Positions 1-50,150 of a DNA stretch of 64,000 nucleotides are shown in pieces. The stretch is from Adineta vaga (taxonomy: Eukaryota > Animalia > Rotifera): positions 14,119,769-14,183,768 of the forward strand of contig CP075492.1 in NCBI GenBank assembly GCA_021613535.1, read 5' to 3'. Every line of letters starts with the position of its first letter. Position 1 is the stretch's first letter. The notes under the pieces were generated by a model. The model ran no database searches, was not told the DNA's origin, and saw nothing but the letters and a program-made list of their open reading frames with translations. The translations under genes were made by a program, and so were the position numbers.

Positions 1-21
1 TCTCCTCATCTTCATACCCTG

Positions 22-2016: not shown

Positions 2017-2032
2017 GTATATATATATATAT
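2017..2032. repeat. (TA)n microsatellite in the promoter region of the beta-helix gene
   Basis: cgtatatatatatatatgac read directly, about 90 bp upstream of ATG 2119. Confidence 0.7.
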
Positions 2033-2118
2033 GACAAAGCTCTTTTATATAATGAAAAAAAAGATAATATATATAAACCTCTTCTTTGTCTATATAGTTC
2101 AAGAGCAATTCTACAACG

Positions 2119-5048: not shown

Positions 5049-5101
5049 ATCGCTTCGAGGGTGTGAACGAGGGTATAGTTTCTTCACATATATACGCTCA
5101 C
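5049..5101. repeat. short hairpin-forming element, copy 1 (gagggtgtg…cttc…ctcactctccccc)
   Basis: Alignable with the copies at 13836..13888, 38691..38740 and 54961..55010. They share GAGG(G/A)TGTGGGTG, GAATGAGGGT-like and CTTCTT blocks plus an inverted CACCCACACC-type arm. Confidence 0.35.
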
Positions 5102-5301
5102 TCTCCCCCGTGAAATATTTTGTATATTTAAAAGTATACATTTAGTAGGAGAGGAAAAAGAACATGTGCAAATGAATTCTAAAAACATTTCAACTTTTTG
5201 ATCGTTATGTTGTTCAAAAACCTTCATAATTTTCAGTTCATTAAATTATAGTAGAACTCGTATAAAAAATTTGTTTATTACAAGATTCGTGTTTCGTCAG
5301 A

Positions 5302-12476: not shown

Positions 12477-12488
12477 ACAATATAATAT

Positions 12489-13520
12489 TTAATGATGTAA
12501 AGTTGTCGTATGTTTAGCATGCATTGCAGCCATAGGTATGGTATGCATATTAGTTCGACTATCATGATCAGCCGGCATTTGTCGATAAAACCATCTCATT
12601 CGTTTCAAAAGACGAAATAATTTTCGACGAAATGTTGGACTAGATAGTGTATGTAAATAAAATGCAGCACTAAAATTTAAATATGGTAATGTAAATGACA
12701 TATTGATCATGAATACACCTATTAATGTAATTTGAGTGCTTTGTGGCGCAGGATAGATCAAACTATAGATTAGATAGACGGCATATAATATATTACATAA
12801 AAGATCAGTGATGACCTGAGCCAATAACATTGTTATATATTGACCAATGATTTGACGTTCGTTATGTATAACATCATTCGTTGGTAAAATTCGTCTTTGC
12901 ATTGTTTTTAAATGACAAAAAGTAATCAGACCACATATAATCATACTTAATGGAATAGATATGCCTTGAATCAATGCAGATATTGTAGTATAAATAGCAT
13001 ACGTTGAATTTGGTGGTGATAAACATTGACCATAGATTATTGTATGATATATTAAAGCGGGTGACGAATACACGAAGGAAAAAATCCATATAAAAACAAT
13101 CAAATAATACGCTACTTTTGGTCGACTTTCCATACGCATCCATGCACTTCTCGAACTAGCACACATTCGATCAACGCAAGCAAATAAAATTGATAATCGA
13201 TAAATTAAGAAAGAAGTACTAGTCAAATAAGTACGTAAACGACAGAACCATAATGAAGTTAGAGCAGGATCAATATTGTAAAGACCACGAACAAGACGTA
13301 GTACAAGACCAAAATTTAATATAAATATATCAATAATTGATGCAGATAAAAAGTAAAGTAAACAAGAATTTGAACGTGATGTTGGTCGAGCAAATATTAA
13401 CAAATTCAAACAATTACCAATATTTCCCAATATAAAACAAATTGGTAATATAATATAATTAAAAGACCAATTCACATCATTGAATATAGTTGTTAAACTA
13501 GAAACGAAAGTGCCTGACAT
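12489..13520 (-). CDS. class-A-like orphan GPCR (7TM), paralog of 11511..12476, 343 aa
   Basis: ATG at 13520-13518. LGNIGNCLNLLIFAR and ACVDRMCASS motifs. It is tail-to-tail with the previous gene, with only 12 bp between the stop codons. Confidence 0.7.
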   Translation of the reverse strand: MSGTFVSSLTTIFNDVNWSFNYIILPICFILGNIGNCLNLLIFARPTSRSNSCLLYFLSASIIDIFILNFGLVLRLVRGLYNIDPALTSLWFCRLRTYLTSTSFLIYRLSILFACVDRMCASSRSAWMRMESRPKVAYYLIVFIWIFSFVYSSPALIYHTIIYGQCLSPPNSTYAIYTTISALIQGISIPLSMIICGLITFCHLKTMQRRILPTNDVIHNERQIIGQYITMLLAQVITDLLCNILYAVYLIYSLIYPAPQSTQITLIGVFMINMSFTLPYLNFSAAFYLHTLSSPTFRRKLFRLLKRMRWFYRQMPADHDSRTNMHTIPMAAMHAKHTTTLHH

Positions 13521-13835
13521 TTCTACTGATTATATCTTAGCAGCTTTATCTTAGTTTATAGTTCTTTTCTGTGAATTGTCAGAAGAAAATGAAGAAAGAA
13601 ATTCATTTATAAATGACGCATTTTGTGCTGTCAAAATCAGATTTACTATAAATATTACGAAGAGCGTTATCTTGTCATATTTCAGATCGTGATAAGTTCC
13701 AACTTCAGATAAACAACGTTTCTGACAGATCTAATTAGTTTTACAAGAGACACGATATATTTCCTTCGTTATTGAAGTTAGCGTAAACAAACATTTTCTC
13801 TAAATCTACAGTTTTGTTCATATCCTGAGGATGTG

Positions 13836-13888
13836 GGTGAATGAGGGTCTTCTTATGATTTATACTCACACCCACACCTTCAGGTCCA
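13836..13888. repeat. short hairpin element, copy 2 (gaggatgtgggtgaatgagggtcttcttatgatttatactcacacccacaccttc)
   Basis: Inverted arms GATGTGGGTG / CACCCACACC with a ~30-nt loop. Related to the copies at 5049, 38691 and 54961. Confidence 0.4.
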
Positions 13889-14367
13889 ACTGATGTATAC
13901 TGTGTTCGAAATAATGAGATTGTTGTGTAGACGAAAGTCTTTTAATAAAACCAGCATCTTATCGAAAGGGAAAAAACACATTTTTTTAACCTGTAATTAC
14001 ACAAGAAAGTATGTCTAATCGTGACAGAAAGCAAAAAAACCATACCCACGTCATTTTATTTTTTTTCTCACGAACATCAGCAAGGACAACGCATACATTG
14101 CTTCTGTTGTTGTGTTTGTTGTTAACAGGTAAGAAAAAGAATTCTTATTTCGGAAGAAAATAAACGCAAAGTTTTTGCATCTGAGAGACTCTCCTATAAA
14201 TCCAATCCCTAGGGAACCGTGTAGTTAACTCATCAATGATTTATCTGCGAACTTGAAGGTTAGAATATGTGGTTTTTTTTCGAAAAAAGATATATAATTT
14301 AATTTTACTCTTCTACACACGAATGATTCATTTCAGAACATAATATATACTTTACTAGTCTTCTACC

Positions 14368-15225: not shown

Positions 15226-18200
15226 GTAAGTGCTCGCATTGACCTGCATCCTGTCATGGCTCTTCTCTGCTGGATAATATTCTAGGGGAAAGTACACAGT
15301 CCGATAATCTTAGAAAACTGAGAAGAATTCAATAGTATCTATTGGAACTCACATTACTCTCTTTAGTTCATTTTCTGGAGAGAAGTAAAAACTGACTTTA
15401 TAGTTCGCAAATACAATAGAGAATGGTTAGAGTACATCTAGTGAAGATATATTTGAATCAGTATTATGCTTTTATACCGCAATTATTCTGTTACTCGGAT
15501 TACACTCGTGAAGAAAAGATAATGTTTTATCTATGAGTATCAGTATGAACATGGAGTTATAAGAAATGGTCTCTTTCTCTATTTAGACCCTTATCACGCA
15601 AGTCCTTCAAAACCCAGCGATACATTTCATGGTACGAAGAACACAATGACATCAACTGAGCCATTGCCTAAACCTGTATCTATGCCAAAACCAGGTATGT
15701 TAATTTGAAGAAATTTACAATCTTTTCCTCACATCTAACCTCTCCATCGGTTTCAACATGGAAGAATTCTATTCGATCCACATAGAAGTCTCTATCTCTG
15801 ACGAACTATATCATAGTATCAAAATTCCTCACTTTCTATTCCAACGTATCTTTGATAGTTCTGCTCCTATTTTATTTAATACTTGTGCTTTGAAAAATTA
15901 TAAATTTTCTACGCAACATATGTGTGGCAGTCGGTTAGGGAATTTAGTTGAGATTGGAATATAGAAAAATACTATCTAAATCTATATTTTTATTTGTAGA
16001 GAGGAAAAATAGAATTGATAATTGTATATTAAAGAAAACAGTTATAATTTATTTAACTATGTTATGAAACGTTAAATAATTGTTTTATAAAGAGGATATT
16101 GATTTTTGTAAAAGTAGACAGATTTTTTTCATGAGCGGGACATGCGGGACATTGAAATTTTATATTGAAAGATAGAGATTTTCGTAGAAAAAATAGTTTT
16201 CTTTTCTAGGTGAGAAATGCGGCACATAGAGTTTTCTTTCGTTTTGTATTAAGAGAAAGATTTCTGCTACCTATTTTTCCTGTTACGGTTTATTTGACAC
16301 TGATTTAAATAAATCTTTCTCTTTCCCTTTTTTAAAAATTAGTTTTCTGCAATTTCTTATTTAGAATATAGGTGAGGCTGCTTCCGAATATTTCAATGTA
16401 TAAAAAAATATATTCGTATGCATAGAATAAGTATTTGCGAAGCATAAATTATATGGATGAAAAATGAATTATCTCTCAGATTTTTTTTAGAAAATAGAGG
16501 TTTTGTTAAATATTTTTATTGACTAACTAGAAATAGAATGTAATGAGTGGTACACTACTTTAGATATTGATAAAAATTTAGACAAGTTTGAAAACATTAC
16601 GAGCAGAGAGCTGATGAAAATGGCAACATAAATTAAAACGAGAAATAAAGCAGTTCAGTTTGAGGAATAGGAATATCGTTTTTTAGTGCCCCTTGAAATC
16701 AAAATAAAGTTGGAATAGTTTAGACGAAATGATTTCGAGTAGGAGGTAAAAAAGGCAGGGAGTACAATTGGTTAATGAAGTAAATATTTCTACAAAATTT
16801 GACAAGTTAAACATGTAACAAAGAGTTTAATAACTTAATTTAAAATGATTATCATAGGACTATCGCTAAATCTTCATTTTGTAGGAACGAACATCTACTA
16901 AGAGAATATAAAATAGAGAAATGATTGTGTCACTTAGATTTCTTACATAATAATATTTTGAAACACACTCTTTTATTCTTTGATAAAAAGAAAACGGTGT
17001 GAATGACAAAATGTTTCTTTATGAAAATCCGTTTATAATATTCCATTCGATTCAGATAGATTTATTGATGAAGAAATCTATTTAATTTTCGTTTCTCTTG
17101 TTTCTGTCTATTTTTTTCGCGCATTCCAATCTCAACTGAATTCTCATGTCAACTGTGACATTTTTATTTATAGATTTAGCAGTATCGTTCTGAGCTGTAG
17201 TAGATCTAAACACACAGGTAGTACTAGTTATTGATGGTAATACAGATAGAGACACAGAAAGTAAACATACAAGAGAAGAGATAGTTGACATGAAATACTC
17301 GCAGTCTTCACTTTAGCTAAATACTATAGTCATTAATCGAATGTTTTCCAGCATACTATTGTTCATCTCCTTCATAACTCTGTAACAGCTATGAATTTTT
17401 GTTTTAGAAGATAAAGAATTTGCTGAGCCTGGTAGCTGTGACAAACTCTATCACAATTATTCATTTGTTCTATGTCCAATAACTAACGAAGCATAGTAAG
17501 ACAACGGATTTAGACAAAATAATGTAAACGAATACAACTTTTGTCATAGGCAATCGTATATTCGATGCTTTATTGCAAATATATTCTAGCAGAACTTCCA
17601 TGTCTAGTGCGAGAAATATATGAACGAAATGCTGAAGGGCGTCGTATCTATTCATTTTGTCTGTCAACTATGAACTGTCCATGAAGTGTTATATTTGACT
17701 GAAAAGAACAAATAATAATCGAATGCTATGATCCTTGTGCAAAATGTCACAAGTGTCGTTGTTCTTATTCTATTATCGTATAATCAGAAATTAACAAATG
17801 AACTTCAGACTTTTATGAGATTAAGAAAAATAATGGAATAGAACTTTGATTTAAACGATTCAAAGGACATACTTTTTCTTTATGTTGATCGATTGAGTAA
17901 TATCGCTTTCAAACAACTGAAGTAGATGAATATGATCATTGGAATTTTCTAAATCATTCATGTGCTGCGTGAATATCAGTGGTCTATCCGTCTGAAATAT
18001 GAGCATTATTGTAGACAAAATAGGCTAATACAATCTACTGGTGATAGTAATTATTCATTTAATCAGTGAAACGTAAAGCTATGATTATGAACGAGTCATT
18101 CATTTCATATTAGTGAAATAGATGAATAGAAATGTCTGCCCATGTGGAAAATGATTGTACATTTAGTATGTAATGTTTTCATCTGAAGCAATAAAGAACA

Positions 18201-19597: not shown

Positions 19598-22500
19598 TTC
19601 AGTTGTTGTGTGATAGAGGTTGATGTGATTGAATGTTGATGTTGGTATGGAAGTGGGAAAGAGAGTTGAATAGAAGAATTATGAGAGATGTTCAGTTGTT
19701 GTGTGATAGAGGATGATGTGATTGAATGTTTATGTTGGTATGGAAGTGGGAAAGAGAGTTGAATAGAAGAATTATGAGAGATGTTCAGTTGTTGTGTGAT
19801 AGAGGATGATGTGATTGAATGTTGATGTTGGTATGGAAGTGGGAAAGAGAGTTGAATAGAAGAATGATGAGAGATGTTCAGTTGTTGTGTGATAGAGGAT
19901 GATGTGATTGAATGTTGATGTTGGTATGGAAGTGGGAAAGGGAGTTGAATAGTCGATTCGTGGTAGATGTTCAGTTGTTGTGTGATAGAGGATGATGTGA
20001 TTGAATGTTGATGTTGGTATGGAAGTGGGAAGGAGAGTTGAATTTCGGAGTGGTGGTAGATGTTCAGTTGTTGTGTGATAGAGGATGATGTGATTGAATG
20101 TTGATGTTGGTATGGAAGTGGGAAAGAGAGTTGAATAGAAGAATGATGAGAGATGTTCAGTTGTTGTGTGATAGAGGATGATGTGATTGAATGTTGATGT
20201 TGGTATGGAAGTGGGAAAGAGAGTTGAATAGAAGAATTATGAGAGATGTTCAGTTGTTGTGTGATAGAGGATGATGTGATTGAATGTTGATGTTGGTATG
20301 GAAGTGGGAAAGAGAGTTGAATAGAAGAATGATGAGAGATGTTCAGTTGTTGTGTGATAGAGGATGATGTGATTGAATGTTGATGTTGGTATGGAAGTGG
20401 GAAAGAGAGTTGAATAGAAGAATGATGAGAGATGTTCAGTTGTTGTGTGATAGAGGATGATGTGATTGAATGTTGATGTTGGTATGGAAGTGGGAAAGAG
20501 AGTTGAATAGAAGAATTATGAGAGATGTTCAGTTGTTGTGTGATAGAGGATGATGTGATTGAATGTTGATGTTGGTATGGAAGTGGGAAGGAGAGTTGAA
20601 TAGAGGAATGATGAGAGATGTTCAGTTGTTGTGTGATAGAGGATGATGTGATTGAATGTTGATGTTGGTATGGAAGTGGGAAAGAGAGTTGAATAGAGGA
20701 ATTATGGTAGATGTTCAGTTGTTGTGTGATAGAGGATGATGTGATTGAATGTTGATGTTGGTATGGAAGTGGGAAAGAGAGTTGAATAGTGGAGTAGTGG
20801 TAGATGTTCAGTTGTTGTGTGATAGAGGATGATGTGATTGAATGTTGATGTTGGTATGGAAGTGGGAAAGAGAGTTGAATAGAGGAATCGTGGTAGATGT
20901 TCAGTTGTTGTGTGATAGAGGATGATGTGATTGAATGTTGATGTTGGTATGGAAGTGGGAAAGAGAGTTGAATTTAGGATTGGTGGTAGATGTTCAGTTG
21001 TTGTGTGATAGAGGATGATGTGATTGAATGTTGATGTTGGTATGGAAGTGGGAAAGAGAGTTGAATAGAAGAATTATGAGAGATGTTCAGTTGTTGTGTG
21101 ATAGAGGATGATGTGATTGAATGTTGATGTTGGTATGGAAGTGGGAAGGAGAGTTGAATTTCGGAGTGGTGGTAGATGTTCAGTTGTTGTGTGATAGAGG
21201 ATGATGTGATTGAATGTTTATGTTGGTATGGAAGTGGGAAGGAGAGTTGAATTTCGGAGTAGTGGTAGATGTTCAGTTGTTGTGTGATAGAGGATGATGT
21301 GATTGAATGTTGATGTTGGTATGGAAGTGGGAAAGAGAGTTGAATTTCGGAGTGGTGGTAGATGTTCAGTTGTTGTGTGATAGAGGATGATGTGATTGAA
21401 TGTTGATGTTGGTATGGAAGTGGGAAAGAGAGTTGAATAGAAGAATGATGAGAGATGTTCAGTTGTTGTGTGATAGAGGATGATGTGATTGAATGTTGAT
21501 GTTGGTATGGAAGTGGGAAGGAGAGTTGAATAGAAGAATGATGAGAGATGTTCAGTTGTTGTGTGATAGAGGATGATGTGATTGAATGTTTATGTTGGTA
21601 TGGAAGTGGGAAAGAGAGTTGAATAGAAGAATTATGAGAGATGTTCAGTTGTTGTGTGATAGAGGATGATGTGATTGAATGTTGATGTTGGTATGGAAGT
21701 GGGAAAGAGTTGAATAGAAGAATGATGAGAGATGTTCAGTTGTTGTGTGATAGAGGATGATGTGATTGAATGTTGATGTTGGTATGGAAGTGGGAAAGGG
21801 AGTTGAATAGTCGATTCGTGGTAGATGTTCAGTTGTTGTGTGATAGAGGATGATGTGATTGAATGTTGATGTTGGTATGGAAGTGGGAAGGAGAGTTGAA
21901 TTTCGGAGTGGTGGTAGATGTTCAGTTGTTGTGTGATAGAGGATGATGTGATTGAATGTTGATGTTGGTATGGAAGTGGGAAGGAGAGTTGAATAGAAGA
22001 ATGATGAGAGATGTTCAGTTGTTGTGTGATAGAGGATGATGTGATTGAATGTTGATGTTGGTATGGAAGTGGGAAAGAGAGTTGAATTTAGGAGTCTTGA
22101 GAGATGTTCAGTTGTTGTGTGATAGAGGATGATGTGATTGAATGTTGATGTTGGTATGGAAGTGGGAAAGAGAGTTGAATTTCGGAGTGGTGGTAGATGT
22201 TCAGTTGTTGTGTGATAGAGGATGATGTGATTGAATGTTGATGTTGGTATGGAAGTGGGAAAGAGAGTTGAATAGAAGAATTATGAGAGATGTTCAGTTG
22301 TTGTGTGATAGAGGATGATGTGATTGAATGTTGATGTTGGTATGGAAGTGGGAAGGAGAGTTGAATTTCGGAGTGGTGGTAGATGTTCAGTTGTTGTGTG
22401 ATAGAGGATGATGTGATTGAATGTTTATGTTGGTATGGAAGTGGGAAGGAGAGTTGAATTTCGGAGTAGTGGTAGATGTTCAGTTGTTGTGTGATAGAGG

Positions 22501-25048
22501 ATGATGTGATTGAATGTTGATGTTGGTATGGAAGTGGGAAGGAGAGTTGAATTTCGGAGTGGTGGTAGATGTTCAGTTGTTGTGTGATAGAGGATGATGT
22601 GATTGAATGTTGATGTTGGTATGGAAGTGGGAAAGAGAGTTGAATAGAAGAATTATGAGAGATGTTCAGTTGTTGTGTGATAGAGGATGATGTGATTGAA
22701 TGTTGATGTTGGTATGGAAGTGGGAAAGAGAGTTGAATAGAAGAATTATGAGAGATGTTCAGTTGTTGTGTGATAGAGGATGATGTGATTGAATGTTTAT
22801 GTTGGTATGGAAGTGGGAAGGAGAGTTGAATTTCGGAGTGGTGGTAGATGTTCAGTTGTTGTGTGATAGAGGATGATGTGATTGAATGTTGATGTTGGTA
22901 TGGAAGTGGGAAAGAGAGTTGAATAGAAGAATGATGAGAGATGTTCAGTTGTTGTGTGATAGAGGATGATGTGATTGAATGTTGATGTTGGTATGGAAGT
23001 GGGAAGGAGAGTTGAATAGAAGAATGATGAGAGATGTTCAGTTGTTGTGTGATAGAGGATGATGTGATTGAATGTTTATGTTGGTATGGAAGTGGGAAAG
23101 AGAGTTGAATAGAAGAATTATGAGAGATGTTCAGTTGTTGTGTGATAGAGGATGATGTGATTGAATGTTGATGTTGGTATGGAAGTGGGAAAGAGAGTTG
23201 AATAGAAGAATGATGAGAGATGTTCAGTTGTTGTGTGATAGAGGATGATGTGATTGAATGTTGATGTTGGTATGGAAGTGGGAAAGGGAGTTGAATAGTC
23301 GATTCGTGGTAGATGTTCAGTTGTTGTGTGATAGAGGATGATGTGATTGAATGTTGATGTTGGTATGGAAGTGGGAAGGAGAGTTGAATTTCGGAGTGGT
23401 GGTAGATGTTCAGTTGTTGTGTGATAGAGGATGATGTGATTGAATGTTGATGTTGGTATGGAAGTGGGAAGGAGAGTTGAATAGAAGAATGATGAGAGAT
23501 GTTCAGTTGTTGTGTGATAGAGGATGATGTGATTGAATGTTGATGTTGGTATGGAAGTGGGAAAGAGAGTTGAATAGTGGAGTCTTGAGAGATGTTCAGT
23601 TGTTGTGTGATAGAGGATGATGTGATTGAATGTTGATGTTGGTATGGAAGTGGGAAAGAGAGTTGAATTTCGGAGTGGTGGTAGATGTTCAGTTGTTGTG
23701 TGATAGAGGATGATGTGATTGAATGTTGATGTTGGTATGGAAGTGGGAAAGAGAGTTGAATAGAAGAATTATGAGAGATGTTCAGTTGTTGTGTGATAGA
23801 GGATGATGTGATTGAATGTTGATGTTGGTATGGAAGTGGGAAGGAGAGTTGAATTTCGGAGTGGTGGTAGATGTTCAGTTGTTGTGTGATAGAGGATGAT
23901 GTGATTGAATGTTTATGTTGGTATGGAAGTGGGAAGGAGAGTTGAATTTCGGAGTAGTGGTAGATGTTCAGTTGTTGTGTGATAGAGGATGATGTGATTG
24001 AATGTTGATGTTGGTATGGAAGTGGGAAGGAGAGTTGAATTTCGGAGTGGTGGTAGATGTTCAGTTGTTGTGTGATAGAGGATGATGTGATTGAATGTTG
24101 ATGTTGGTATGGAAGTGGGAAAGAGAGTTGAATAGAAGAATTATGAGAGATGTTCAGTTGTTGTGTGATAGAGGATGATGTGATTGAATGTTGATGTTGG
24201 TATGGAAGTGGGAAAGAGAGTTGAATAGAAGAATTATGAGAGATGTTCAGTTGTTGTGTGATAGAGGATGATGTGATTGAATGTTTATGTTGGTATGGAA
24301 GTGGGAAGGAGAGTTGAATTTCGGAGTGGTGGTAGATGTTCAGTTGTTGTGTGATAGAGGATGATGTGATTGAATGTTGATGTTGGTATGGAAGTGGGAA
24401 AGAGAGTTGAATTTAGGAGTCTTGATAGATGTTCAGTTGTTGTGTGATAGAGGATGATGTGATTGAATGTTGATGTTGGTATGGAAGTGGGAAAGAGAGT
24501 TGAATTTAGGAGTCTTGAGAGATGTTCAGTTGTTGTGTGATAGAGGATGATGTGATTGAATGTTTATGTTGGTATGGAAGTGGGAAGGAGAGTTGAATTT
24601 CGGAGTGGTGGTAGATGTTCAGTTGTTGTGTGATAGAGGATGATGTGATTGAATGTTGATGTTGGTATGGAAGTGGGAAAGAGAGTTGAATAGTCGATTC
24701 GTGCTAGATGTTCAGTTGTTGTGTGATAGAGGATGATGTGATTGAATGTTGATGTTGGTATGGAAGTGTGAAAGAGAGTTGAATTTAGGAGTCTTGATAG
24801 ATGTTCAGTTGTTGTGTGATAGAGGATGATGTGATTGAATGTTGATGTTGGTATGGAAGTGGGAAAGAGAGTTGAATTTAGGAGTCTTGAGAGATGTTCA
24901 GTTGTTGTGTGATAGAGGATGATGTGATTGAATGTTGATGTTGGTATGGAAGTGGGAAAGAGAGTTGAATTTAGGAGTGGTGGTAGATGTTCAGTTGTTG
25001 TGTGATAGAGGATGATGTGATTGAATGTTGATGTTGGTATGGAAGTGG
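19598..25048. repeat. tandem satellite array: ~58 copies of a 93-bp monomer with a ~1.5-kb (16-monomer) higher-order repeat
   Basis: Monomer: gatgttcagttgttgtgtgatagaggatgatgtgattgaatgttgatgttggtatggaagtgggaaagagagttgaat plus a 15-nt variable cassette (agaagaattatgaga, agaagaatgatgaga, ttcggagtggtggta, agtcgattcgtggta, ttaggagtcttgaga and others). Monomer starts at 19690, 19783, 19876 and 19969 give a 93-bp period. The diagnostic variant agtcgattcg recurs at ~19951, 21808, 23297 and 24688, and the run 21421-22200 is repeated at 22921-23700. Confidence 0.95.
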
Positions 25049-25701
25049 CAGCCAAAGATGGATTACATCCTCATGTATGCCTATGCGAGATGCATTAACT
25101 TGTTCAATGAACATTCTGCGACTGAGGATAACACTCTTTGTAAATCGATTCGTTGGATGATAATTTAATATTCTTAAAATAAAAAATGACTGGAAACCAG
25201 AAAAGGGACACAGCGCGTTAATGCGAGCAAGCGCAAGCGCTTGCGAGCACGCTCCGAAAAACCGTCGATAGACGGCGCTAATTTACGGTGAATTAATTTT
25301 TTCCCTTATAAACATAAATACTTATATACGTAGCCACTGCAAAAGGACACAGAATAATGAAACATTTCAAGTGATACTGAGATATATATCCTTTCGCAAA
25401 CGCACCCGCTATGAATACCGTTCTGCTCACACTTTGCAAGGATTGCTTAATCTCAATCTACCATACAATTGCCACGGGATGTTGCTTTAACTGCACATCT
25501 GCTTCGAAATATAAACTGAACAAATCCTTTATACACATATTTTACGCATATTGAAAAATCACGATCGCCCTCTGATCTGCGCATCTAAAACGAAGAAATC
25601 CTCTTTCTGCACAATGCATTCAAACCAAGGCAACTTTAAACTGCACTATAAAGCACTCGAAAAGGTTCCCTTTATCACCCATACAATCACACTTAAGGTT
25701 T

Positions 25702-30933: not shown

Positions 30934-33900
30934 TTATATACCGTCTCGCATTTTCTGTTCAAATTCATCTGCTTTATTGTATTCATTCAATGAATAGCGA
31001 TATGTTCGTATAATACTCATCATTATGTCAAATTTCACATCTTCACTTGCTCGATAAGAAATATCCTGACAGATTTTTTCAATATCATGAATAACATCTT
31101 TTTTTCTTGCAATCGATGCACTTTCAAGTGCAATACGTGCATCAATTAATTTCTGTTTAATTAATGATAAATTTGACACATCACCATCCCATCTCATATA
31201 TGGAAATAAATCAACATCATGTTCAAGCATAACATCAAGAAGACGAACACCTACAATAGATAGTACATCATTTTACTAATAACGCTGTGCACGAATATAC
31301 CTGGTACAGATGTTTTTAAATCTGTTTTCATATCACGTTCTTCAATAGCAACAAAACTTGTATATGCACTAACAACAGAATGTTTTATACTTAGGTCAAT
31401 AAGATCTCGTTTATATTGAATTTTCATCAATTCATTTTCACTTTCGTCCAAATCGAATAATCCATTTTCATAATCATCAATAATCGTTCGAGCAGTTAAA
31501 CAGTGTAAAATACGACCGGTAGTTGCTGTCATTGAACTACTAAATACATTGGTCACAAATTCTTGTCCATCAATCAGTACTGACAATGTTGCTTTATGAC
31601 AATTTCGTATAAATCGATAGACAGTAAGTCGCATTCCATTGAATAATGATCGAATCATTTTCGGTGCTTGCATGTGAAATTTTTCTTGTTCATCTACATG
31701 ACCATGCCAATCAATCGAAATACTTGTCACACATGGTTGTCGAACATAATCGAGAATATTCAATACTTTTGTTTTCCATTTCGATCGATAATTTGAATCG
31801 AATATTGTTGCTAGACCACCTCCACTTGCTCCATTAGCTAACTGTTTTAAACAATGTTTATTCGCAACATTACCAATCGAACACGTAAATAGACGATCAT
31901 AACGCATAGTGAGCTGTTGTTTCAGTAGAATAAGAATCGAATTGAGATCATTAATATGTCCATCAGATACGAGAATAAACTGACGAGCTACCTTCGATGG
32001 TAATAATGAATAACGATGAAGAACAGAGAATAGATCTGTATTTCCACGATGAATCAATGAATGCTGAAATACATGAAAAGAATAAGATATACTTCAATTT
32101 CAAAGTAGATTACAAACCAAAACAAAATGTTTAGCTCTATCAAGATTCTCTTTTGTAGTTGGTACGGATATTGGAAAACATTCATCATTATCTAAGTAGT
32201 TTAAATGAAAAGAATAGAAAACGATCCCTGTATTCTACCTGATCCGAAAGTAATGAGATTAAAATATGTATTTTCATCATCGATTTTCATATTTGTTAAA
32301 AACAAATGAGTCAATTGTTTTGCCTGTTGTGAATGATTTCCATCCATTGAATTCGATACATCAATAATGAAAATAATTTCAATTTGTTCATTTGTATTCA
32401 TTAATGTTTCAAATCGTGGATAGAAAGTTAACATACATGCTTGAGAAGTGAAATAATCTGATGATAATGTTTCAATGGACATTCGAGGTAAATTAGGATT
32501 ATGTAATGTGATTGAAAGAATGAAATCTCGATCGAGTAAAACATTATCCACTAGTTCAATCATAGCAATACAATTTGTTAATTTTCGACGAAGACGATGC
32601 GTTGGTGAAAAAAGTTTTGTTATATTATATGGCATTCGAATGGATGTTTTAAAAGTAAATTCGACTTTTTCATTTATAATACCAAATGATCGTAAAATTG
32701 ATTGATCTCTTGTTTCAATTGCTTGTTTTGATTGCCATGATGTCATTTTAGCTGGAAGACGAAATATAATATCATCATTTTCAATTTCTAATTCAGCGAC
32801 ATAGGTTATTTTAATGATCACTTCATTATTTGCTGGCAGATTACCAACAGCTACACTGAAGACTTGTGCTTCTTCCTGATGCATTAAATACGCACCATGA
32901 CCTTTTTCAATTGCTTCTCGATATTCTTGTTTAGCTTGTTCTTTTTCTTTTACAACTCCTTTGATTACTTTATTATTAATATGTGCTTCAAAACCACAAA
33001 CCGTGGAATTTTCATCAAGTGGAAATACATATTTAGCTTCGATTGGTACGGAACTTGTATTGTGATAGACTTGATACATAACAACCTTTGTTTAGGAAAT
33101 AGAAATCGCGAATGTATTAACTTTGATAGAAGAATTAACTGTATATTACTTCAACTGTAGTATCAACAATTTGTGCACGAATATGAAATGATTTCAGTGG
33201 TACAAGTTTTCCTGATGATGGACATATTAAACCATAATCTTGTTCAGCTACTTCAATAATTTCATCATCGATGGTCATGAGAACTTCGACTATATGACCT
33301 TACCGTCATAGGTTTATTTCTAATCAAGAAAGACTTATTCTTACCATGTTCACTTAACTTCAATGTATATTGATCATGATGAGTTATTGATAAGCGTTCA
33401 AATTCATTATTTAGAACATCCTTCGGTAACCATGATACTTCCACAATATAGAGTAGAAGTTGTTGATCCAGTCGATAGATTGCATATTCATTATCCTAGT
33501 TGAATAGCAATCACTTTTATTTTTGGAGTTTTCAAATTCGAAAAGATACTTACAATAAACATTGAATGATTCTCTTCAGTTCGTTTAATTCCATGAGTAC
33601 TATGAAATCCATCGGCAGGTTTAGTAAGGGTTGGTGAAAATGAATAATATTTGGCAGATTCACCTAGTGCTACTCGACAAATGCATAATAACCGACGACC
33701 TGGTCGTACTGTGCTTGCTGTCGTATATTGGAGTGAAGTTGAAACGGAATCAGAAAAATATATTCCATAACCAAGACAACCAACATCCGTACGTGTGACA
33801 CCTAATTCTTCAACTACCATTTTCGGCATCACTAAACCGCTGAATATACAGCATACATTTACTACGTAAATATTTAAGAAATGCAATATAAATATATACT

Positions 33901-35986: not shown

Positions 35987-36352
35987 TTGATCAGTATAGG
36001 AACATGTGATCATGATACTTGTCAATGCGATAAAGTTGCTGTTGAATGTTTTCTTCGTCATAGAAATACTACTTATGATCGTGATTTCAATAATTGGAAA
36101 GGTCTATGTACTAAAACATCCAACGAACCATCAGATGATCCTCAGAGATGTCCACCTGTTTGGAATAAGAAAACAAAATATATGCGTAATAATTTAGTAA
36201 GTATCAATGGAATTGTATATCAATATCTTCAGACAAATAATCCAGGTGAAAATCCCAAGAAAAAACTACCCAGTATGAATATACTAGAACGTGAAGCACG
36301 ATGGAAAAAGTTGAAACGATGCCGACGTATGGACATAGTGAATGACTTTTAA
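35987..36352 (+). CDS. group-III (bee-venom-type) secreted phospholipase A2-like, C-terminal exon
   Basis: TCDHDTCQCDKVAVECFLRH resembles the SCDCDDKFYDCLKN block of group III sPLA2. The catalytic CCxxHDxC block would lie in an unlocated upstream exon. An acceptor …tttgatcag|TATAGG lies immediately upstream. The gene is divergent from the PARP4-like start 300 bp away. Confidence 0.35.
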   Translation: MISIGTCDHDTCQCDKVAVECFLRHRNTTYDRDFNNWKGLCTKTSNEPSDDPQRCPPVWNKKTKYMRNNLVSINGIVYQYLQTNNPGENPKKKLPSMNILEREARWKKLKRCRRMDIVNDF

Positions 36353-36666: not shown

Positions 36667-37931
36667 ATGTATACACTTTCATACGATACATTTATTAACA
36701 ATAATGATATCTGTTTATTACCTGGTATTAATCCTCAAACAATTGAAACTTGCTGTGATCTACTTCAAAAGAATCGTGAAACTCATCATGTTTTTTTCTA
36801 TATACCAGGTGGTTTTCATAATCATATTGCACATCATCTTTTAGCTGCTCTTGGACTAGGTGCTTCATCTTCTACATTGAAACATATCTATGAAAAGCAA
36901 ACAAAGATTCAACAACCATTAGTTGCACTTAATCAGAAAAATGATTTTAATGCAGAAAAATGTTTAGGTAATGATAATTATTATCATAATTATTTGGAAT
37001 TCTTTGAAAACGAATTGAAAAATGAAAAATATCATGGAAGTAGTATTGATTTAATTGAAGATTATGTGTTCAATAAAGGTTATCTTGGTCTTATATTAGG
37101 TGGTGCTTATCATCCATTTATTCATCTTGGATATGCTCTCGAATTTCAATCGAAAATAATGACTATTGAAGGTTTAGCGATGGCAGCAGTTGATCGAATC
37201 AATATGAACGAGATTGTCGAACATTTAAATTATGATCAAATAAATAACGATGGTAATCGAACAGCTTTAGAAATTATTGACTTAATTTTGAACGATCGTC
37301 GTTTTGATGAAATGATTTTTTATACAGATCCGAGACCAAAAACAGATACATTCTTGAAAAGAGGTGGTGCTCCATTGATTGCAGAATATGCTCGAATGTG
37401 GAAAGTAGATTTAAATGAAGCAAGACAAATTAGTATCTTAGTGAATACGGCTGCTCTACGACCAAAGAAAGAACCACGTTTAGATTTTTTTCTTATGCAT
37501 GCAACAACAAGTGGTTTATTCTTGGATATCATTGTTCATTCATTAAAAAACAAAGAAAATCAATTGAAATTAATAAGAGCTAAATTTGCCGTCGATCTTT
37601 TTATTACGTTGCACGTGGACGACCAAAATTAAATATAGATTACTTATGTAATGAATATCAAGTCTCAAAAGAACATTTATATGCTGATGCAACAAATCCA
37701 TGGTTACCTCTTATTGATAAATGTTTAACACATTCAGATGAACATGTACCAAAGACAATAAGAGCATTGATCTATGCAGAAAAATTTGATAAGGCACAAG
37801 ATAAAGAGAAATTACCGTATTTAAAAATTGCACAAATGGTTATGGATACTTTATTTCCAATTGGAGAAAAAGATTGGGTTGAAGAAGGGATTGGTTGGGA
37901 TGAATATTGGATGACTGTAAACGATTTGTAA
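36667..37931 (+). CDS. questin-oxidase-like (DUF4243, AflY-like) oxidoreductase, interrupted by a single +1 frame switch near 37600
   Basis: ATG at 36667. The family signature HNHIAHHLLAALGLGASSSTLKHIY is present. The ORF stops at 37632, but the next frame continues with a convincing C-terminus (YVARGRPKLNIDYLCNEY…GIGWDEYWMTVNDL*) to 37931. No GT-AG intron can explain a 1-nt shift. Confidence 0.6.
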
Positions 37932-38355
37932 AGATTTTGATGTCATCTTTGAAATAAACTTTATCTTTGATCATTAGTTTTAATATTTTATATTTAAAGT
38001 CTTTCAAAACAATACTAAAAAGTAGAGTGAAATGATTGTTTATTGGTTTTAACTGATTGACGAATACTTCAAACAAAATTATTTCAGTTGAAATTACAAT
38101 CAGTAATTACAACAACATCAATATATAGTTTTTACAAATTATTACGAATAGAGAAATAATCGTCTACGGAATACGTTTCTATTTCAGCATCATGCCAATC
38201 ATATATAGTTATATTATCAGATTATTCGCCATTCACTTTTATACTTTATAGATAATAATAGTCAAGAGAATTAGTTATGAGTATTAGTAAAAAGCATCTT
38301 ATGTTAGTATCTACGGATGATAAGAAAACGTTTCTTTCCATGTTCCATCAGTTGT

Positions 38356-38668
38356 TTAACATGGTTTTAGAACATTTTCCTCATATAGATCGGCCATATT
38401 TCCACCTGAAACATAGTTTCCAACGACATACAAAGTGTTGCTCTTAGACACTGCTCTACCAATACTCGAACGTGTTGTACTTTTCCAGACTACTTGCGTG
38501 AAATGTCCAGTAAGCTTCTCCACCTTTTGAGAACAAGAAGAAAGTTTTAGATGCGAAAATGAAACAGATATTATGATTTACCTTCGCTGGATACTACTGA
38601 ACCCGATGAACTAGCTGAATAAAAGTTCTCACCCATCCATTCTCCATGGAATTTATTTCCACTGTGCT
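38356..38668 (-). CDS. CAP/SCP (GAPR-1/GLIPR2-like) protein, two 3' exons (model incomplete)
   Basis: The last exon 38523..38356 encodes VEKLTGHFTQVVWKSTTRSSIGRAVSKSNTLYVVGNYVSGGNMADLYEENVLKPC*, carrying the CAP1 (GHFTQVVW) and CAP4 motifs. The exon 38668..38582 encodes …HSGNKFHGEWMGENFYSASSSG. The 58-bp intron between them has good signals but the phases do not reconcile (phase 1 versus phase 0), so a frameshift or a missed micro-exon is possible. Confidence 0.5.
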
Positions 38669-38690
38669 CTAAATACATCATTATTTGAGG

Positions 38691-38740
38691 GTGTGGGTGT
38701 GGCAATTGATAAGTTAAACGAATGAAGGGTAAAGTACTAC
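38691..38740. repeat. short hairpin element, copy 4 (gagggtgtgggtgtgg…gaatgaagggt), inside the CAP gene
   Basis: Shares the GAGGGTGTGGGTG and GAATGA(A)GGGT blocks with the copies at 5049 and 13836. It is probably intronic. Confidence 0.35.
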
Positions 38741-39219
38741 TTGACATGAAATAGAGATTTATTTGCGAAGATCACTTTACAACCATCAGGACTATATGAT
38801 ATGGTTCAACGTTTGGCAATGATCATACTTGGTATACATAGATAACAAAAACTATTGTAACTTGACAAGTGCGTACAGTTATCTCAATACACACATTCTT
38901 ATGAACTTCTTCATTTGAATTCGTAATATCTAGCTCAAACATTGTAAGAAAATTGTGTTTTGTCTAGAAAGCAATAAACATACTTCGCCAAGGTTTGATA
39001 AGAAGGGAATATAGAACGTAAAAAACAAATATAATTTCGCAACGTGTTAGCCGAAGGTGACGTTTTATATGGTTATCGATATGAAAAATCCAAATCATCA
39101 TTCTGTATGCCTTACGCAATACGTTTACGATTCATAAGACTATAAAACAGTAGGATATCAATGATATACTATCGAAAATGAGCTCAGACATTATTACTAA
39201 CGATAGAACGAAAACAGTC

Positions 39220-40255
39220 ATGAAAAAAACTGTTTTACTTGATATTCCACCACGATTACAATGGGATCATGGCAATGGTTTCTGTGGTGAAACATCGCTT
39301 CAATCTATCGGTAAATAAAATTCGACTTTTTTTACAAACTCTCACTATAAATGATAATTATTTGATATTATTAGGTCTAAAGTATGGTGCTTGGATTTCA
39401 CAAAAATTAATTCGTGATATTAACAAAGGTGAATACCTTTTACAACCAATGTCCTCCAATGATCGTCGAAATTCATTACGTACTTTGGCAAAACTTCATT
39501 TCACATATGACGAATGGGATTGGAAGAATTCTCCTCAACCACAATTCCATCAGTTTTGTCTTTGGATGAAACGATGTATTTTACAACGATGTCCTATTAT
39601 ATTTGCTATTTTTCTTCCTGGTATGGATTATGAAGATTATGATCATATTGTTCCTGCAGTTGGCATACAATATCAAAATGAAGATGAATACGATCCAGAT
39701 GATAAACTGATCTATTATGATTTATACGCGAAGAAACAAATTAAAAAAAGACTCAATAACGAGGAATTCGGTGCAACTAGAAGAACTATTGATTACAAAA
39801 AGAATGCTGGCGATGGATGTTTACCAATTGATGTAAGCTTTTTCATTCTAATTCTATATCATCATTGAATACAGACATAGAAATCTTTTCTGATATCGTA
39901 GATTGATTATGGTATTGCTATCACTGGTATAGTCGATGAAGATCAAGTAACATTACCAATTCATTTATCTGTTTCTGCGTGTGATGAACCTGATCCAATC
40001 TTTTGTGAAGCTCCACGAGAAATGACTGGAATCATTACCGTAGAAAATCTAACAATTGGAATGTTTTACGCTCTACTAAGATATTCATCCTACAAACATG
40101 TGCCAACAAAAGGTGATGCGGATGCTTTTCTTCAATCGAACTTTGATGAAATACATGTATTTATGGCAATGGAAACGAACTATGTGTATGAAGATCCAAA
40201 GCAAATATCATCAAAACGATCCGTTTATTATCGATGTGTTATAGTACCTGAATAA
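39220..40255 (+). CDS. three-exon gene encoding a papain-like (peptidase C39-like / BtrH-N-like) cysteine-peptidase-domain protein, 300 aa
   Basis: Exons 39220..39310, 39375..39832 and 39902..40255. Introns are 64 bp (GTAAAT…ttattag) and 69 bp (GTAAGC…atcgtag), with phases 1 and 0 consistent. The N-terminus MKKTVLLDIPPRLQWDHGNGFCGETSLQSIG|LKYGAWISQ carries a C39-like Cys block, and DHIVPAVGIQY later supplies a His. The family call is tentative. Confidence 0.6.
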
Positions 40256-40868
40256 TATTTGTCAAATTTCATACAGATGTAAACAGATGAATAACAACTA
40301 CCAATGTCGACTTTTATCAAGCGATTTTTTGATGAAAATATTGCAAGAAATTGATTGTCTTATACTTTACAGATGTTAGATTATGGAGTTAGGTTTTTTT
40401 TCTGTAATTATAAATTTGTGAAAACTAAACGCAAAGGATGTATTCGTAACATAAATAAAACGAAGCGTACAAGGAAAAACGATATCGAAGTTTAGAAGGA
40501 CATCTATTTATCAGTGAGAAAAATGTGTTTGTGTATATCCTTCGTTATACAGTAATCTGATCGAAGGAAATAAATCAAAGAAAACTGTTTTGAATGTAGA
40601 GCTATAAAATATCAAGTTTTGAACTTTTATTAACAAAATACATCCGACGTATGCGTCTCAAAGAAAACGTATCATTGATTTTTGTCGTAAGAAAAGAAAG
40701 AAAACATGCCTGTCTATAGAACACTATGATGATTTTGCATATACTATAACCAAGGGTATCAATGGTATATTTAGAAAAACTTTCTATAAGATAGTTATAT
40801 TTTATTCAGACATACTGCATGAAACTCATCTTAACATTCATCACAGTGTCTCTTTCGTTTTTTTTTAT

Positions 40869-43800
40869 TATGTTTGTGAAGATGGTTGTGAATTAACATT
40901 TGATCGAGCCAATGCTTCTGTTAATCGTTTTAATGTGATTGTAATCTATGAAGAAAAGAAAATCAGAATACGTTAGACAAATATGATATAGTTTCAAAAC
41001 ATACTTCATTCAATTGTCTTTGCATATCTTCATATGTATTCCCGTTGATTGAACTAAAAAGATATTCAATGAATCATACAGTAAACTTATATTCAATACA
41101 TGTCTCTCTACTAACGATTCCAGTAATTTTCTTTGTTGATTTAAATTCTTTTCCTTCTCGAAATTTACAACCGATCTAGCATAACCATACGTTGCAGCAT
41201 TTTCAAATTTACTCCATCGTTTATGAAGTACTTGACGATTTAATGGAATTATCTCTAAAAAATATTATCTATGCTTCATCTTGAATCTCTTTTAATTCTA
41301 TTATTCTTACTAAAAATCGGTGTTGTAACAGAATTATGTTCAGTTCTGATACTATCAAGATTTGAAGAGCAACATTTCTTCCACAGAGCAAGACACACAA
41401 TCCATATATGTGGTATAAGTATCAATGGTGGATAAGCTAACCATGGACGCTCGAAATATTCACGTACAAATGAATATCGTTGAAAACGCCAGTAGAATTC
41501 TGTATTTTCTTGAACTTCATGAATAGTACGGCTATAAAAGAAAAGAAATTTGATTGCCTAAATCGTCTCGAAAAATACAAGTATGTTGTTACGTAAAAAC
41601 AGCAATTAATAAATTCAACAATAAGATATTAATGAATAACATATGAAATGCTAAAAGAACATGTGTCGCAGTTGCTTCAGCAATAAATGTACTATTTTCG
41701 TTATGTATTATATCTATAGACGAAATATTTAGTCTATATGCATAAGAAAAAAGGCAAGCCTATCAAATGTTCTTACTATCTAGTGTGATTGTGTCGTTAT
41801 ATTGTCCATGAATGAACCAATATGGTGAATAAAATATATTCTCAAATATACCTTGACCAGTAAATGGTACTTGTTTGTACATAAAAAGTGCACGTGAAAC
41901 AACACCATATGCAGCAATAGCAATAAATATCATATACACAAATGCACCTAAATCACGCAACTAAAATAATCAAAGATAAACTATCTATACAATAATCTTA
42001 ATTATTTACCATATTTCTCAGCATAAAAAGTTTTGGTCCTAAAAATTTGAGAGCAATCACAAATTTTAATGAACGAAGATACCACAATTCTAAATCGAAT
42101 GCCATGATAATTCGTGCTGCTGATAAGACACTTGGTGTATTACCAAATGCATAACGTAACAAGATTCCAAGATAGAAAAGAAGAAATGGTAGAGCATAGA
42201 AAGGATTAGCTAACTTAGTAAGAATTAAATGAGTAGTTGTATTCCATTTCTCGAGCATTCTTGTATGCAAATCATGAACAATCTAGAAGTTCAAGATGAA
42301 TAAAAAGAGAAAATTCATTATTTCACATTACATACTTGTCGTATTTCTTCGAGAAACATGGTAGTAACAATAATGATGATTGCATATTCAGTCCAATGTA
42401 GTTTACCATTTGTATATGCAAGTGAATCGAAATGATAAAGCATCATATAACTGAATATCAACAAGAAGAAAATATATGAAATCTAAATTGAAATACAAAA
42501 AATGATGTAGAATCGTTTGATCGAATTGTTTACTTACGACATGATAGCACATTTTAACGAGTGGAGTTTCGTGAAAACTAACGAATTTCTTCCAAAAACT
42601 AGGTTGATCTTCATCAATATCATAATTGATACCATTTTCAGATAATCTAAATAAAAATTAATTGATGAAATACTTCGAACATGAATGTAGTATTCCAAAA
42701 TATTAACATACTTTACATTTCTCGTATGATCATCAAATGCTTCCTAAAATGCAAAGAAATGAGAGAAAATAGTTGTGAAGTAATTCTATACATACATTAG
42801 AATGATAATCTTCTTTTGATCGATATTCAAGAACTTTAGGTGCAACAAGTCCAAATGTTGCTATACTACATGTCAACCAAATTTTCGAGGAAAGAGATTT
42901 GTTTGAAAGAGCCAATTTATTATACCAAATTTGATTGAGTACATGATCAAAACATGCTGTTTCTAAGAATTTAGCATTCTTTCCAGATATTGCAATCTAT
43001 ATCAAGAATTGTCGTAATTATATGACCAAAGTAATTTGATAAAGAATACTCACCTGCATACATGTGACATTTCCAAATGAAGGAATTACTCTCATTAGTA
43101 ATTGACAAGTGAGTGCTTCATTAATTTCATAGCAGAAATTAACACATTGTGCTGAATAATTTTCGAATTCAATCACTTGTCGATTGAGTCTATCTCTAAC
43201 ATCAATAATTGGTGTTTCATTTGCATAACTCTTGAAGATTTTTGCAGCAATCAATGAAGCAGAAATACGTTCTTTCATATGAATTAAAATAGTCTTTGCC
43301 ATTAATGAAAGATCCATGAATACAGACCAAAGAAATAGATCTCTTAACATATCTTGTTGCGAATAATTGTAGTTACTGTCATTTGCTGTCGTATTGTTCG
43401 GATTAATACCTATTGTAGTAATGTTTTGAACAGTTTTCATACCTTCCAATACATCCTGATGAACTTGTAGAATAATATTTTCATTCTCAGACGCAACTTG
43501 ATTCTTGAAATATTTCACGGAAGACCAATTTGCTGAGGGTGTCCTTGGTGCAGTCGGAGGAAGAGAATGATATACAGAATCAACGTATGAACCTAACCAT
43601 TTCCTTAACTTTTTATTCAGTATTCGAATATTTGTCAAGTCTTCATTTCTTTGACCATAAAATAACTTTACTGATTCTTTGTTATGATACTACAATGAAA
43701 AGATTTTCAAGAAAGTGTATTCGAATAGAATAAGTGACAAAGTTTTATTAACTTCGTGTGCGTTATCTTTGATATGCTTGTATAAGCTAAGAACAAACGT

Positions 43801-48668: not shown

Positions 48669-50150
48669 TTAATAATAGGGAACATCATGAAGAGATCTAA
48701 CAGATACGTTTAATTTTTCGAGGTTAATTGAAAATATTTTGATAAGATTTATAATCGCTTGACATTTGTTTTGTTCAATTTTCGATAGCGATTGTGATAT
48801 ATGTAAACATTTGATTTGTTTTGTTAGTAATGAACATACATGTTGATTGGTAAAATCTCCAGTTATTTCTCTCAATGTTTGCCAAGGAACTTGTAATGAA
48901 TGAAGATTAATTGAATATGTTAAAATTTCAGAAAAGAATTGTTCCGAAGATATAGTATTACTTTTTTCAATAGTTAAATGCTTGATTTGAGAAAGATCAA
49001 TAAAACCAATTAATGGTATAAAAACAAATAAATTTTGAATGGTCAATGAATTAAGGTTGGGAAAATAATATTGTTGGAGAATATGTGAATGATACTCACA
49101 ATTAATAACTAAACGTAATTTTTTAATGGTTTGATACACATCTTTTTTCAGTTTAGTTAAAGATTGTATTGATGTAGATAAATAAAATTCTTCATCACAA
49201 TATGGTAATGTATAGAGATGAATATTTTTTATAGTATGAAATGCCGAATTCATCGTCTCATCATAATCACAATGAATAAACCATTGATGTTGATCTGACC
49301 AGAATGATGTTTGAAATGGAGCAAACAATTGTATAGTATTAACACTATCTAAACTTGGATGAATTTTAAAATGAAAATATTTTAAACTAGGTAAATGTCT
49401 TCGAATAAGATTTTCCCATCGATCACCATTAACTAATCGAAATCCTTTTTTTGCACAAACTGTTAACACTTCCAATTTGGACATACAAGCAAATAGTGTG
49501 TCAAGTTCATCAAATGTAACATTAGATTTTTCTGGAAGTTTTAATATTAATTGACAAATATTCAGATCCATTGGATTCATACTGAATATATCACCTGTGT
49601 TTGATACTTCAGCAAACAATTGAACTTCTATTTTTCTTAACATTGGCGTATGTACTAACCATTGATGCAGATTTCGGACTGGACATAAACCTAAAGTTAA
49701 ATATTTTAATGGTAATTCTGTGGTTATTGGTGACAGTTGATGAGAAGATTGAATGGAAAGTGAAGTTAACTTTGGAAGATAATGAAGTTTTCGAGCGATT
49801 TTAATCCAATCTAGTTCTGATATTTCATTTAATGTTAATAATTTGAGATTAATACATCGTCGAATATAAAATGATCGAAAGAATAAATGAATTTGTCGAA
49901 CTGTATCATTTGTATCAGATAATATTAATGATTGAATTTGTTCAGGAGAAATCGATTGACGAACAAAATCAAATTTTGATTTCGGCCAAGATTGAAAATT
50001 CAAATTATATTTATCATAATTATTTAAAAGTTTATTGATACGTTTATTAATTCCTTGAAATGCATAGAGAATGTCATAAATTGTCAAATACTCAAATACT
50101 TCGTAAAGTAATTCATTTGGAAAACGATCAAACATGGTTCGCATCGGCAT
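48669..50150 (-). CDS. F-box domain protein with LRR-like C-terminal region, 493 aa
   Basis: ATG at 50150. F-box: FDRFPNELLYEVFEYLTIYDILYAFQGINKRINKLL. It is a paralog of the partial gene at 22..507. Confidence 0.7.
   Translation of the reverse strand: MPMRTMFDRFPNELLYEVFEYLTIYDILYAFQGINKRINKLLNNYDKYNLNFQSWPKSKFDFVRQSISPEQIQSLILSDTNDTVRQIHLFFRSFYIRRCINLKLLTLNEISELDWIKIARKLHYLPKLTSLSIQSSHQLSPITTELPLKYLTLGLCPVRNLHQWLVHTPMLRKIEVQLFAEVSNTGDIFSMNPMDLNICQLILKLPEKSNVTFDELDTLFACMSKLEVLTVCAKKGFRLVNGDRWENLIRRHLPSLKYFHFKIHPSLDSVNTIQLFAPFQTSFWSDQHQWFIHCDYDETMNSAFHTIKNIHLYTLPYCDEEFYLSTSIQSLTKLKKDVYQTIKKLRLVINCEYHSHILQQYYFPNLNSLTIQNLFVFIPLIGFIDLSQIKHLTIEKSNTISSEQFFSEILTYSINLHSLQVPWQTLREITGDFTNQHVCSLLTKQIKCLHISQSLSKIEQNKCQAIINLIKIFSINLEKLNVSVRSLHDVPYY

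Follow-up and report, generated by a model that had tools for sequence, protein, structure and literature searches.

How did two genes that resemble those of fungi and bacteria come to lie side by side in a rotifer chromosome, and is the broken reading frame of one of them a real mutation? The questions are raised by a stretch of 64,000 nt of Adineta vaga DNA (assembly GCA_021613535.1, contig CP075492.1, positions 14,119,769 to 14,183,768, forward strand), here called the window, in whose own numbering all positions are given. The first gene, gene A (I4U23_015387), is questin-oxidase-like, and its open reading frame (ORF) stops short while a second frame takes over. The second, gene B (I4U23_015388), has three exons and encodes a peptidase-like protein. 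An earlier note on this DNA, made from its letters alone, had drawn attention to both.

The product encoded by gene A is 100% identical to the A. vaga protein I4U23_015387 (321 amino acids), whose gene lies on a 20.35-Mb chromosome-scale contig. The ORF extends from 36667 to 37632, and a second frame is open from 37602 to a stop at 37931. Joining the two frames at the run of T residues between them gives a protein of 421 amino acids, hereafter the repaired reading. The repaired reading matches the Pfam family PF14027 (Questin_oxidase) over the entire profile (1-340 of 340) with 261.1 bits against a cut-off of 27 (E=2.7e-77), and the match spans the break. The assignment of gene A to the DUF4243/questin-oxidase family, made in the earlier note from the motif HxxHHLLAALGLGAS (residues 53-67), is therefore borne out, and the public database assigns PF14027 to the truncated ORF by itself as well. 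Profile matches to solved structures include AflY (8yxs, E=1.9e-57), BTG13 (7y3w), and PaD (8z4q), with E-values ranging from 1e-45 to 1e-57, and the likeness to the solved fungal enzymes is moderate (phmmer E-values of 1e-26 to 1e-30). The bdelloid copies, gene A among them, are intronless, and the Adineta ricciae orthologue is a single exon of 1269 nt. On its sequence, gene A is a full-length Questin_oxidase/DUF4243 gene of the questin-oxidase/AflY/PaD type of non-haem Fe(II) dioxygenases, with an enzymatic activity predicted from family and fold. DUF4243 enzymes of this type open hydroquinone or anthraquinone rings. Gene A resembles the DUF4243 enzymes of fungal polyketide pathways (BTG13, GedK, AflY (HypA), and PaD) in the full PF14027 profile and in the metal ligands kept in the repaired reading. 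It differs from them in lying in an animal genome, with a phospholipase A2 (PLA2) gene and a peptidase-like gene as neighbours and no recognisable polyketide cluster, and this copy, as encoded, ends before His360 and Lys363. We found no biosynthetic cluster that could hint at a substrate around gene A, either in the window or in the A. ricciae neighbourhoods.

We located the break by aligning the DNA of gene A with that of the A. ricciae orthologue from two independent assemblies. The alignment contains a lone 1-nt gap, and this gap lies at the break, where the codons read GAC CTT TTA TAC TAC in A. ricciae and GAT CTT TT- TAT TAC in the window. Gene A has lost one base at 37598-37602. Because a single base is missing, the downstream frame is -1 (equal to +2) relative to the upstream frame, and not +1 as had been proposed. 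The other part of that proposal, a single break with a convincing C-terminus beyond it, stands, since the alignment continues past the junction. Gene A aligns without gaps over the junction with intact bdelloid homologues of 416-434 amino acids, which read DLLYYVARGRPKL at the junction and ...AKFAVDLLYYVARGRPKLN... in longer context, where the window reads ...AKFAVDLF/YYVARGRPKLN.... All full-length bdelloid homologues examined, the A. ricciae orthologue included, are single-frame. The 109 downstream codons contain no stop, which is expected from base composition with P ~4e-5, and the other two frames of the same stretch have 8 and 11 stops. The downstream part is 80-84% identical to the closest orthologues, compared with 72-73% for the upstream part, and 0 of its 33 positions that are invariant among 18 other bdelloid sequences are changed.

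The break bears directly on the predicted iron site. In PaD and BTG13 the iron is bound by four histidines and a carboxylated lysine, which in PaD are H63, H166, H317, H394, and K397 (PMC11371914). Counted along the alignment, these residues correspond to H53, H149, H278, H360, and K363 of gene A, and the five positions are invariant in 12 of 12 aligned homologues. The five-ligand site is complete in the repaired reading; the encoded product consists of 312 native residues followed by nine aberrant ones (ITLHVDDQN) and lacks His360 and Lys363. Because the break at residue 312 removes two of the five ligands, the encoded 321-residue product should be catalytically dead, judging from the family.

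Residual Nanopore errors are typically indels around runs of T and A, and the missing base could be one of them. The break would then be an assembly or polishing artefact, and the true gene would be one base longer (T6 or TTTTAT) and encode an intact, functional dioxygenase of 421 amino acids. The assembly, AV20, was built from Nanopore reads with NextDenovo, polished with Illumina and PacBio reads via HyPo, and represents a haploid collapse of the diploid genome (PMC8494291). Errors can survive such polishing in some places or where a site is heterozygous, and an artefact would also agree with the perfect preservation of the sequence past the break and with the intact state of the other full-length bdelloid homologues examined. 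However, the use of both Illumina and PacBio reads argues against an artefact, and so do the other homopolymers of at least 5 nt. All 90 of those in other open exons of the window (15.4 kb) are in frame, as are all 12 inside gene A, some of which are longer than the broken run (T7, T7, T6, and A6 are among the 12). Since the local homopolymers are all in frame, local polishing looks good, which favours a real deletion. In addition, the A. ricciae sequence TTTTAT suggests that the missing base may be the A between T runs, and a miscounted homopolymer would not explain its loss if TTTTAT was ancestral. The lack of downstream decay means that the break is either very recent or not real. On balance we lean towards a real, young, and possibly heterozygous deletion. 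One base would have been deleted very recently at 37598-37602, most plausibly on just one of the two haplotypes merged in the haploid assembly, and gene A would be a nascent null allele in a genome with at least one intact paralogue. What weighs against this preference is that a complete lack of decay is also what an assembly artefact would give. An error left at the T run by assembly or polishing is a serious, if less probable, contender. The 321-residue ORF forms a public protein cluster with one member from one contig, and no near-identical intact protein was found in a set of 5.8 billion proteins.

Recoding could in principle bypass a real break, and programmed frameshifting had been listed among the explanations in the earlier note. 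In this case the deletion would be genuine and fixed, and a -1 slip of the ribosome or a stutter of the polymerase on U5/T5 would still yield some full-length dioxygenase. A tRNA-Phe paired with UUU at 37600-37602 could slip back by one base onto the UUU at 37599-37601, UAU would be read next, and translation would continue into the conserved ...DLFYYVARGRP..., in a downstream frame that is fully kept. However, the zero-frame codons CUU UUU AUU do not make an in-register X XXY YYZ heptamer, shuffled sequences fold as well as the 98 nt that follow the site (z = -0.07), and Rfam gave no match. Programmed frameshift sites are normally conserved among orthologues, and this site is not conserved, given the single frame in A. 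ricciae and in every other full-length bdelloid homologue examined. The break thus shows neither the heptamer, nor a stimulatory structure, nor the conservation among orthologues that mark a programmed -1 site, and the suggestion of programmed frameshifting is not upheld; we consider slippage of any kind, ribosomal or transcriptional, very improbable. If it did take place, this would be a young recoding event in a horizontally acquired animal gene, and the 109 kept codons would reflect ongoing selection and not youth or an artefact.

A short intron that joins the two frames would leave gene A unbroken, and introns that short do occur in the neighbouring gene B (GT..AG, 64 and 69 nt). We give this explanation almost no credence: the A. 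ricciae orthologue is single-exon, and the alignment covers every codon on either side of the 1-nt gap. Exhaustive enumeration of frame-restoring GT/GC..AG introns over the break gave candidates that are all at least 125 nt long. Splicing out any of them would remove 42 or more conserved codons, and with them either the invariant GRP motif or the ligands His360 and Lys363; all were rejected.

The coordinates of both genes and of the break are collected in Table 1.

Table 1. Parts of genes A and B in the window. Residues of gene A are numbered in the repaired reading and those of gene B from 39220.
Feature	Position	Strand	Basis or remark
Gene A upstream part (I4U23_015387), codons 1-312, with His53, His149, and His278	36667..37602	+	ORF; PF14027; ligand mapping; 100% identical to public protein
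Frame break, T5 run, one base fewer than in intact orthologues, downstream frame -1	37598..37602	+	Three-frame translations; DNA alignment
Gene A downstream part, codons 313-421 and stop, with invariant GRP motif, His360, and Lys363	37602..37931	+	Translation of the -1 frame; alignment
Out-of-frame tail ITLHVDDQN and TAA, closing the 321-residue encoded and annotated product	37603..37632	+	Public protein ends ...AVDLFITLHVDDQN
Gene B (I4U23_015388) exon 1, encoding Gln14 and Cys22	39178..39310	+	Annotated ATG 39178; ATG of the earlier note 39220
Gene B intron 1, 64 nt, GT..AG, phase 1	39311..39374	+	Position kept in A. ricciae
Gene B exon 2, rest of papain-like domain (His121, Asp140) and linker	39375..39832	+	Exon model; alignment; fold comparison
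Gene B intron 2, 69 nt, GT..AG, phase 0	39833..39901	+	Position kept in A. ricciae
Gene B exon 3, C-terminal beta-sandwich domain and stop	39902..40255	+	Model strands E187-297, pLDDT above 90

Gene B was described earlier as a three-exon gene that starts at 39220. The exons and introns of that model reproduce the public protein: the 300 amino acids read from 39220 are identical to I4U23_015388 (314 amino acids) except for 14 extra upstream codons in the latter, which starts at 39178. Because most rotifer homologues of gene B bear a comparable hydrophilic N-terminal extension, 39178 is more likely to be the start than 39220. The Cys block HGNGFCGETS, to which the same description had pointed, holds Cys22, which is invariant in the family alignment together with Gln14 and His121; Asp140 is nearly so. 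In the AlphaFold model (predicted local distance difference test, pLDDT, 95.7) residues ~185-300 form a beta-sandwich, and the preceding domain has the features of a papain-like fold, with a Cys at the N-terminus of a helix, a His on a strand, an Asp/Asn, and an upstream Gln of the oxyanion hole. Profile searches are less telling. Gene B scores 16.3 bits against PF13529 (Peptidase_C39_2), below the cut-off of 24 (E=0.016), no match to PF03412 was found in Pfam, and a profile search against solved structures returned chance-level matches only. PF13529 is matched weakly (E<=0.1) by 27 of the 41 family members, the best with E=4.9e-07.

In the fold comparison, the highest scores were obtained with a C39-like peptidase (3erv, 13.7) and with the pseudomurein endoisopeptidase PeiR (C71, 13.6), followed by Staphopain C (C47, 12.8), the C39 domains of PCAT/ComA (12.1-12.5), AvrRpt2 (11.3), and the BtrH-type CtaG (8.6). 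Family and fold suggest that gene B encodes a C39-like cysteine peptidase-like protein, in which a papain-like domain is followed by a beta-sandwich and whose activity is predicted on the same grounds. It shares the Gln/Cys/His/Asp arrangement with C39-like proteins (PF13529, for example, 3erv) and with the C39 domains of PCAT/ComA. It differs from C39 proper, an N-terminal domain of ATP-binding cassette (ABC) exporters that cleaves double-glycine leaders, in being a stand-alone protein of 300-314 amino acids, and from the PCAT/ComA domains in having a C-terminal beta-sandwich and no ABC domains. With a sub-threshold Pfam score and no ABC fusion, gene B is not a demonstrated member of C39 proper, and no transporter genes were found among the genomic neighbours of its homologues, bacterial or rotifer. 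PeiR and staphopain match gene B about as well as the C39-like proteins do, so the fold does not single out one subfamily. Many bacterial relatives of gene B carry lipoprotein- or signal-like leaders (judged by eye from the alignment), a type IX secretion system (T9SS) tail occurs in one and RTX repeats in two, and the rotifer proteins are without such leaders, tails, or repeats. Gene B probably descends from a family of secreted bacterial lipoproteins and exoproteins and has since lost its signal peptide and acquired two spliceosomal introns. Because the signal peptide is gone, its product probably acts inside the cell, presumably on a peptide or isopeptide bond.

Where did the two genes come from? 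Protein searches gave 96 matches for gene A and 84 for gene B. Those with a name come from rotifers or fungi for gene A and from rotifers or bacteria for gene B; the unnamed gene B matches that we checked lie on bacterial contigs or in metagenome-assembled genomes (MAGs). No homologue from a non-rotifer animal was found for either gene among these matches, in searches seeded by shared words of 5 residues. Gene A is 24-39% identical to its fungal homologues. The closest non-rotifer relatives of gene B (36-48% identity) lie on gene-dense bacterial contigs with a guanine-plus-cytosine (GC) content of 52-72%. Gene B homologues occur in MAGs of Holophaga, Polyangiaceae, Kofleriaceae, Myxococcales, Bacteroidia, and Clostridia, in a genome scan that used an alignment of a 13-sequence subset. 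Orthologues of gene A are present in independent assemblies of Adineta, Rotaria, and Didymodactylos, and those of gene B in Adineta and Rotaria. With the metazoan E-value taken as 1, a crude alien index is ~112 for gene A (fungal match, 1.3e-49). For gene B it ranges from ~38 (Pseudomonas sp., 6.6e-17) to ~163 (1.3e-71), the latter for P0125, the top-scoring of the homologues placed in the tree with bacterial sequences whose contigs were verified. In crude neighbour-joining trees, the bdelloid gene A sequences form one clade that is sister to two environmental sequences and lies beside Mucoromycota, and the rotifer gene B sequences are monophyletic inside a bacterial radiation.

The foreign look of the two genes, on which the earlier note had remarked, is thus real: the named non-rotifer relatives of gene A are all fungi, those of gene B are bacterial, and none is a non-rotifer animal. 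As far as sequence can tell, gene A (fungal-type) and gene B (bacterial-type) are ancient acquisitions from non-animals that are fully adapted to the host, and their predicted donor lineages differ. Three points weigh against this account. The donors are read from neighbour-joining trees that carry no support values, the nearest non-rotifer relatives of gene A are the two environmental sequences and not named fungi, and a word-seeded search could miss very distant animal homologues.

Two contigs carry close relatives of the rotifer sequences. The closest non-bdelloid relative of gene A (37% identity) lies on a metagenome contig (L006; ENA ERZ747223, 40 kb, 37% GC) that carries, at 1-14152, a tandem array of six Questin_oxidase genes beside protein kinase and EF-hand genes. 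This contig looks eukaryotic and could bear on the donor lineage of gene A. For gene B, a Logan contig of 1018 bp (P0120) encodes 311 amino acids that are 47% identical to gene B, and in the tree this sequence is sister to the rotifer sequences as a group, nearer to them than any bacterial one is.

Because the closest non-rotifer relatives are fungi and bacteria, contamination or misassembly has to be considered as a source of such genes. The composition of the genes argues otherwise. Gene A has 30% GC and gene B 34%, near the 33% of the window; the bacterial contigs with gene B homologues have 52-72%. The third-position GC (GC3) of both genes is host-like. Gene B has spliceosomal introns, the positions of which are both common to A. 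ricciae. The order of the PARP4-like gene, PLA2, gene A, gene B, and TRPM in the 29-44 kb segment of the window is collinear with an A. ricciae contig (L001), and the surroundings contain animal-type genes: an RSN1_7TM/OSCA-like channel, two rhodopsin-type G-protein-coupled receptors, the PARP4-like VIT/VWA gene, and a TRPM2-like channel. Orthologues in independent assemblies, described above, point the same way. Synteny, introns, and composition together lead us to exclude contamination for practical purposes. Paralogues of the acquired genes are found on other chromosomes.

That genes A and B are neighbours is a trait of Adineta and does not go back to a donor operon. In Rotaria sp. Silwood2, the ~10 kb that follow the gene A orthologue contain no gene B homologue. 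Co-transfer of the two genes as one unit was rejected for this reason and because their donor lineages differ. The A. ricciae contig L001 is otherwise collinear and carries two additional genes: between genes A and B one of 822 residues in which Pfam finds no domain (11644-14258), and after gene B a BTB gene (16033-18075). DNA-level counterparts of these genes are absent from window positions 37932-39177 and 40256-41004, respectively, so that genes have been gained or lost here between the two Adineta species.

Several other features of the window were recorded. Between genes A and B, on the minus strand at 38356-38747, two short ORFs contain GHFTQVVW and HSG...GEN, motifs that we take to be typical of CAP/SCP/PR-1 domains. 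Neither ORF alone has a Pfam match, and their frames could not be joined, by eye, over a GT..AG intron. No gene is annotated at 38356-38747, I4U23_015387 and I4U23_015388 being consecutive locus tags, and the two ORFs are probably a gene remnant. Upstream of gene A, an ORF on the plus strand (35987-36352) aligns with an A. ricciae gene annotated as Phospholip_A2_1, and its sole Pfam match is a weak one to CBM_5_12. Two minus-strand ORFs, at 48669-50150 (493 amino acids) and 31251-32057 (268 amino acids), have no Pfam match at E<=0.001; the latter sits in the PARP4-like gene region and is probably an exon of the PARP4-like gene. A 93-bp unit is repeated in tandem at 19598-25048 (5.45 kb, 58.6 copies, 94% matches), and this array has almost no C on the plus strand (GC skew ~0.92). 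Its sole ORF of at least 110 amino acids is one of 163 amino acids at the 3' end (24564-25055, minus strand), and owing to this near-absence of ORFs the array looks like a satellite and not a coding repeat.

Massive acquisition of bacterial and fungal genes is a textbook feature of bdelloid rotifers. In AV20, 2679 genes (8.3%) are candidates for horizontal acquisition (PMC8494291). The earlier note called the window unusually rich in genes of non-metazoan type. Foreign-looking ORFs are indeed present (pentapeptide-repeat, ADP-ribosyltransferase, and cytochrome P450 ORFs and weak glycoside-hydrolase matches), but at such a genome-wide share they are expected in A. vaga and not unusual. Genes A and B share with the AV20 candidates their fungal or bacterial relatives, their integration into the host genome, an adapted composition, and paralogues elsewhere, and gene B also shares the gain of introns. 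The two genes differ from these candidates in nothing of kind; they are ordinary for A. vaga, and both are already public as hypothetical proteins. None of the papers searched links bdelloids with DUF4243, questin oxidase, or AflY, and the supplements of Nowell 2024 name neither family, the sole matches being the letters 'afly' inside protein sequences.

These results have consequences for the annotation and for the biology of the two families in rotifers. The entry I4U23_015387, a protein of 321 amino acids without two of the five metal ligands, should carry a flag as a frameshift allele or a possible assembly error. Gene B would represent a secreted bacterial peptidase that was domesticated, with its signal peptide lost and two introns gained whose positions both Adineta species share. 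For gene A, bdelloids possess a conserved, multi-copy clade of DUF4243 proteins, predicted to be ring-cleaving dioxygenases. In fungi, the substrates of DUF4243 enzymes are anthraquinone and hydroquinone polyketides, so the copies in rotifers may serve to handle aromatic compounds of fungal or dietary origin.

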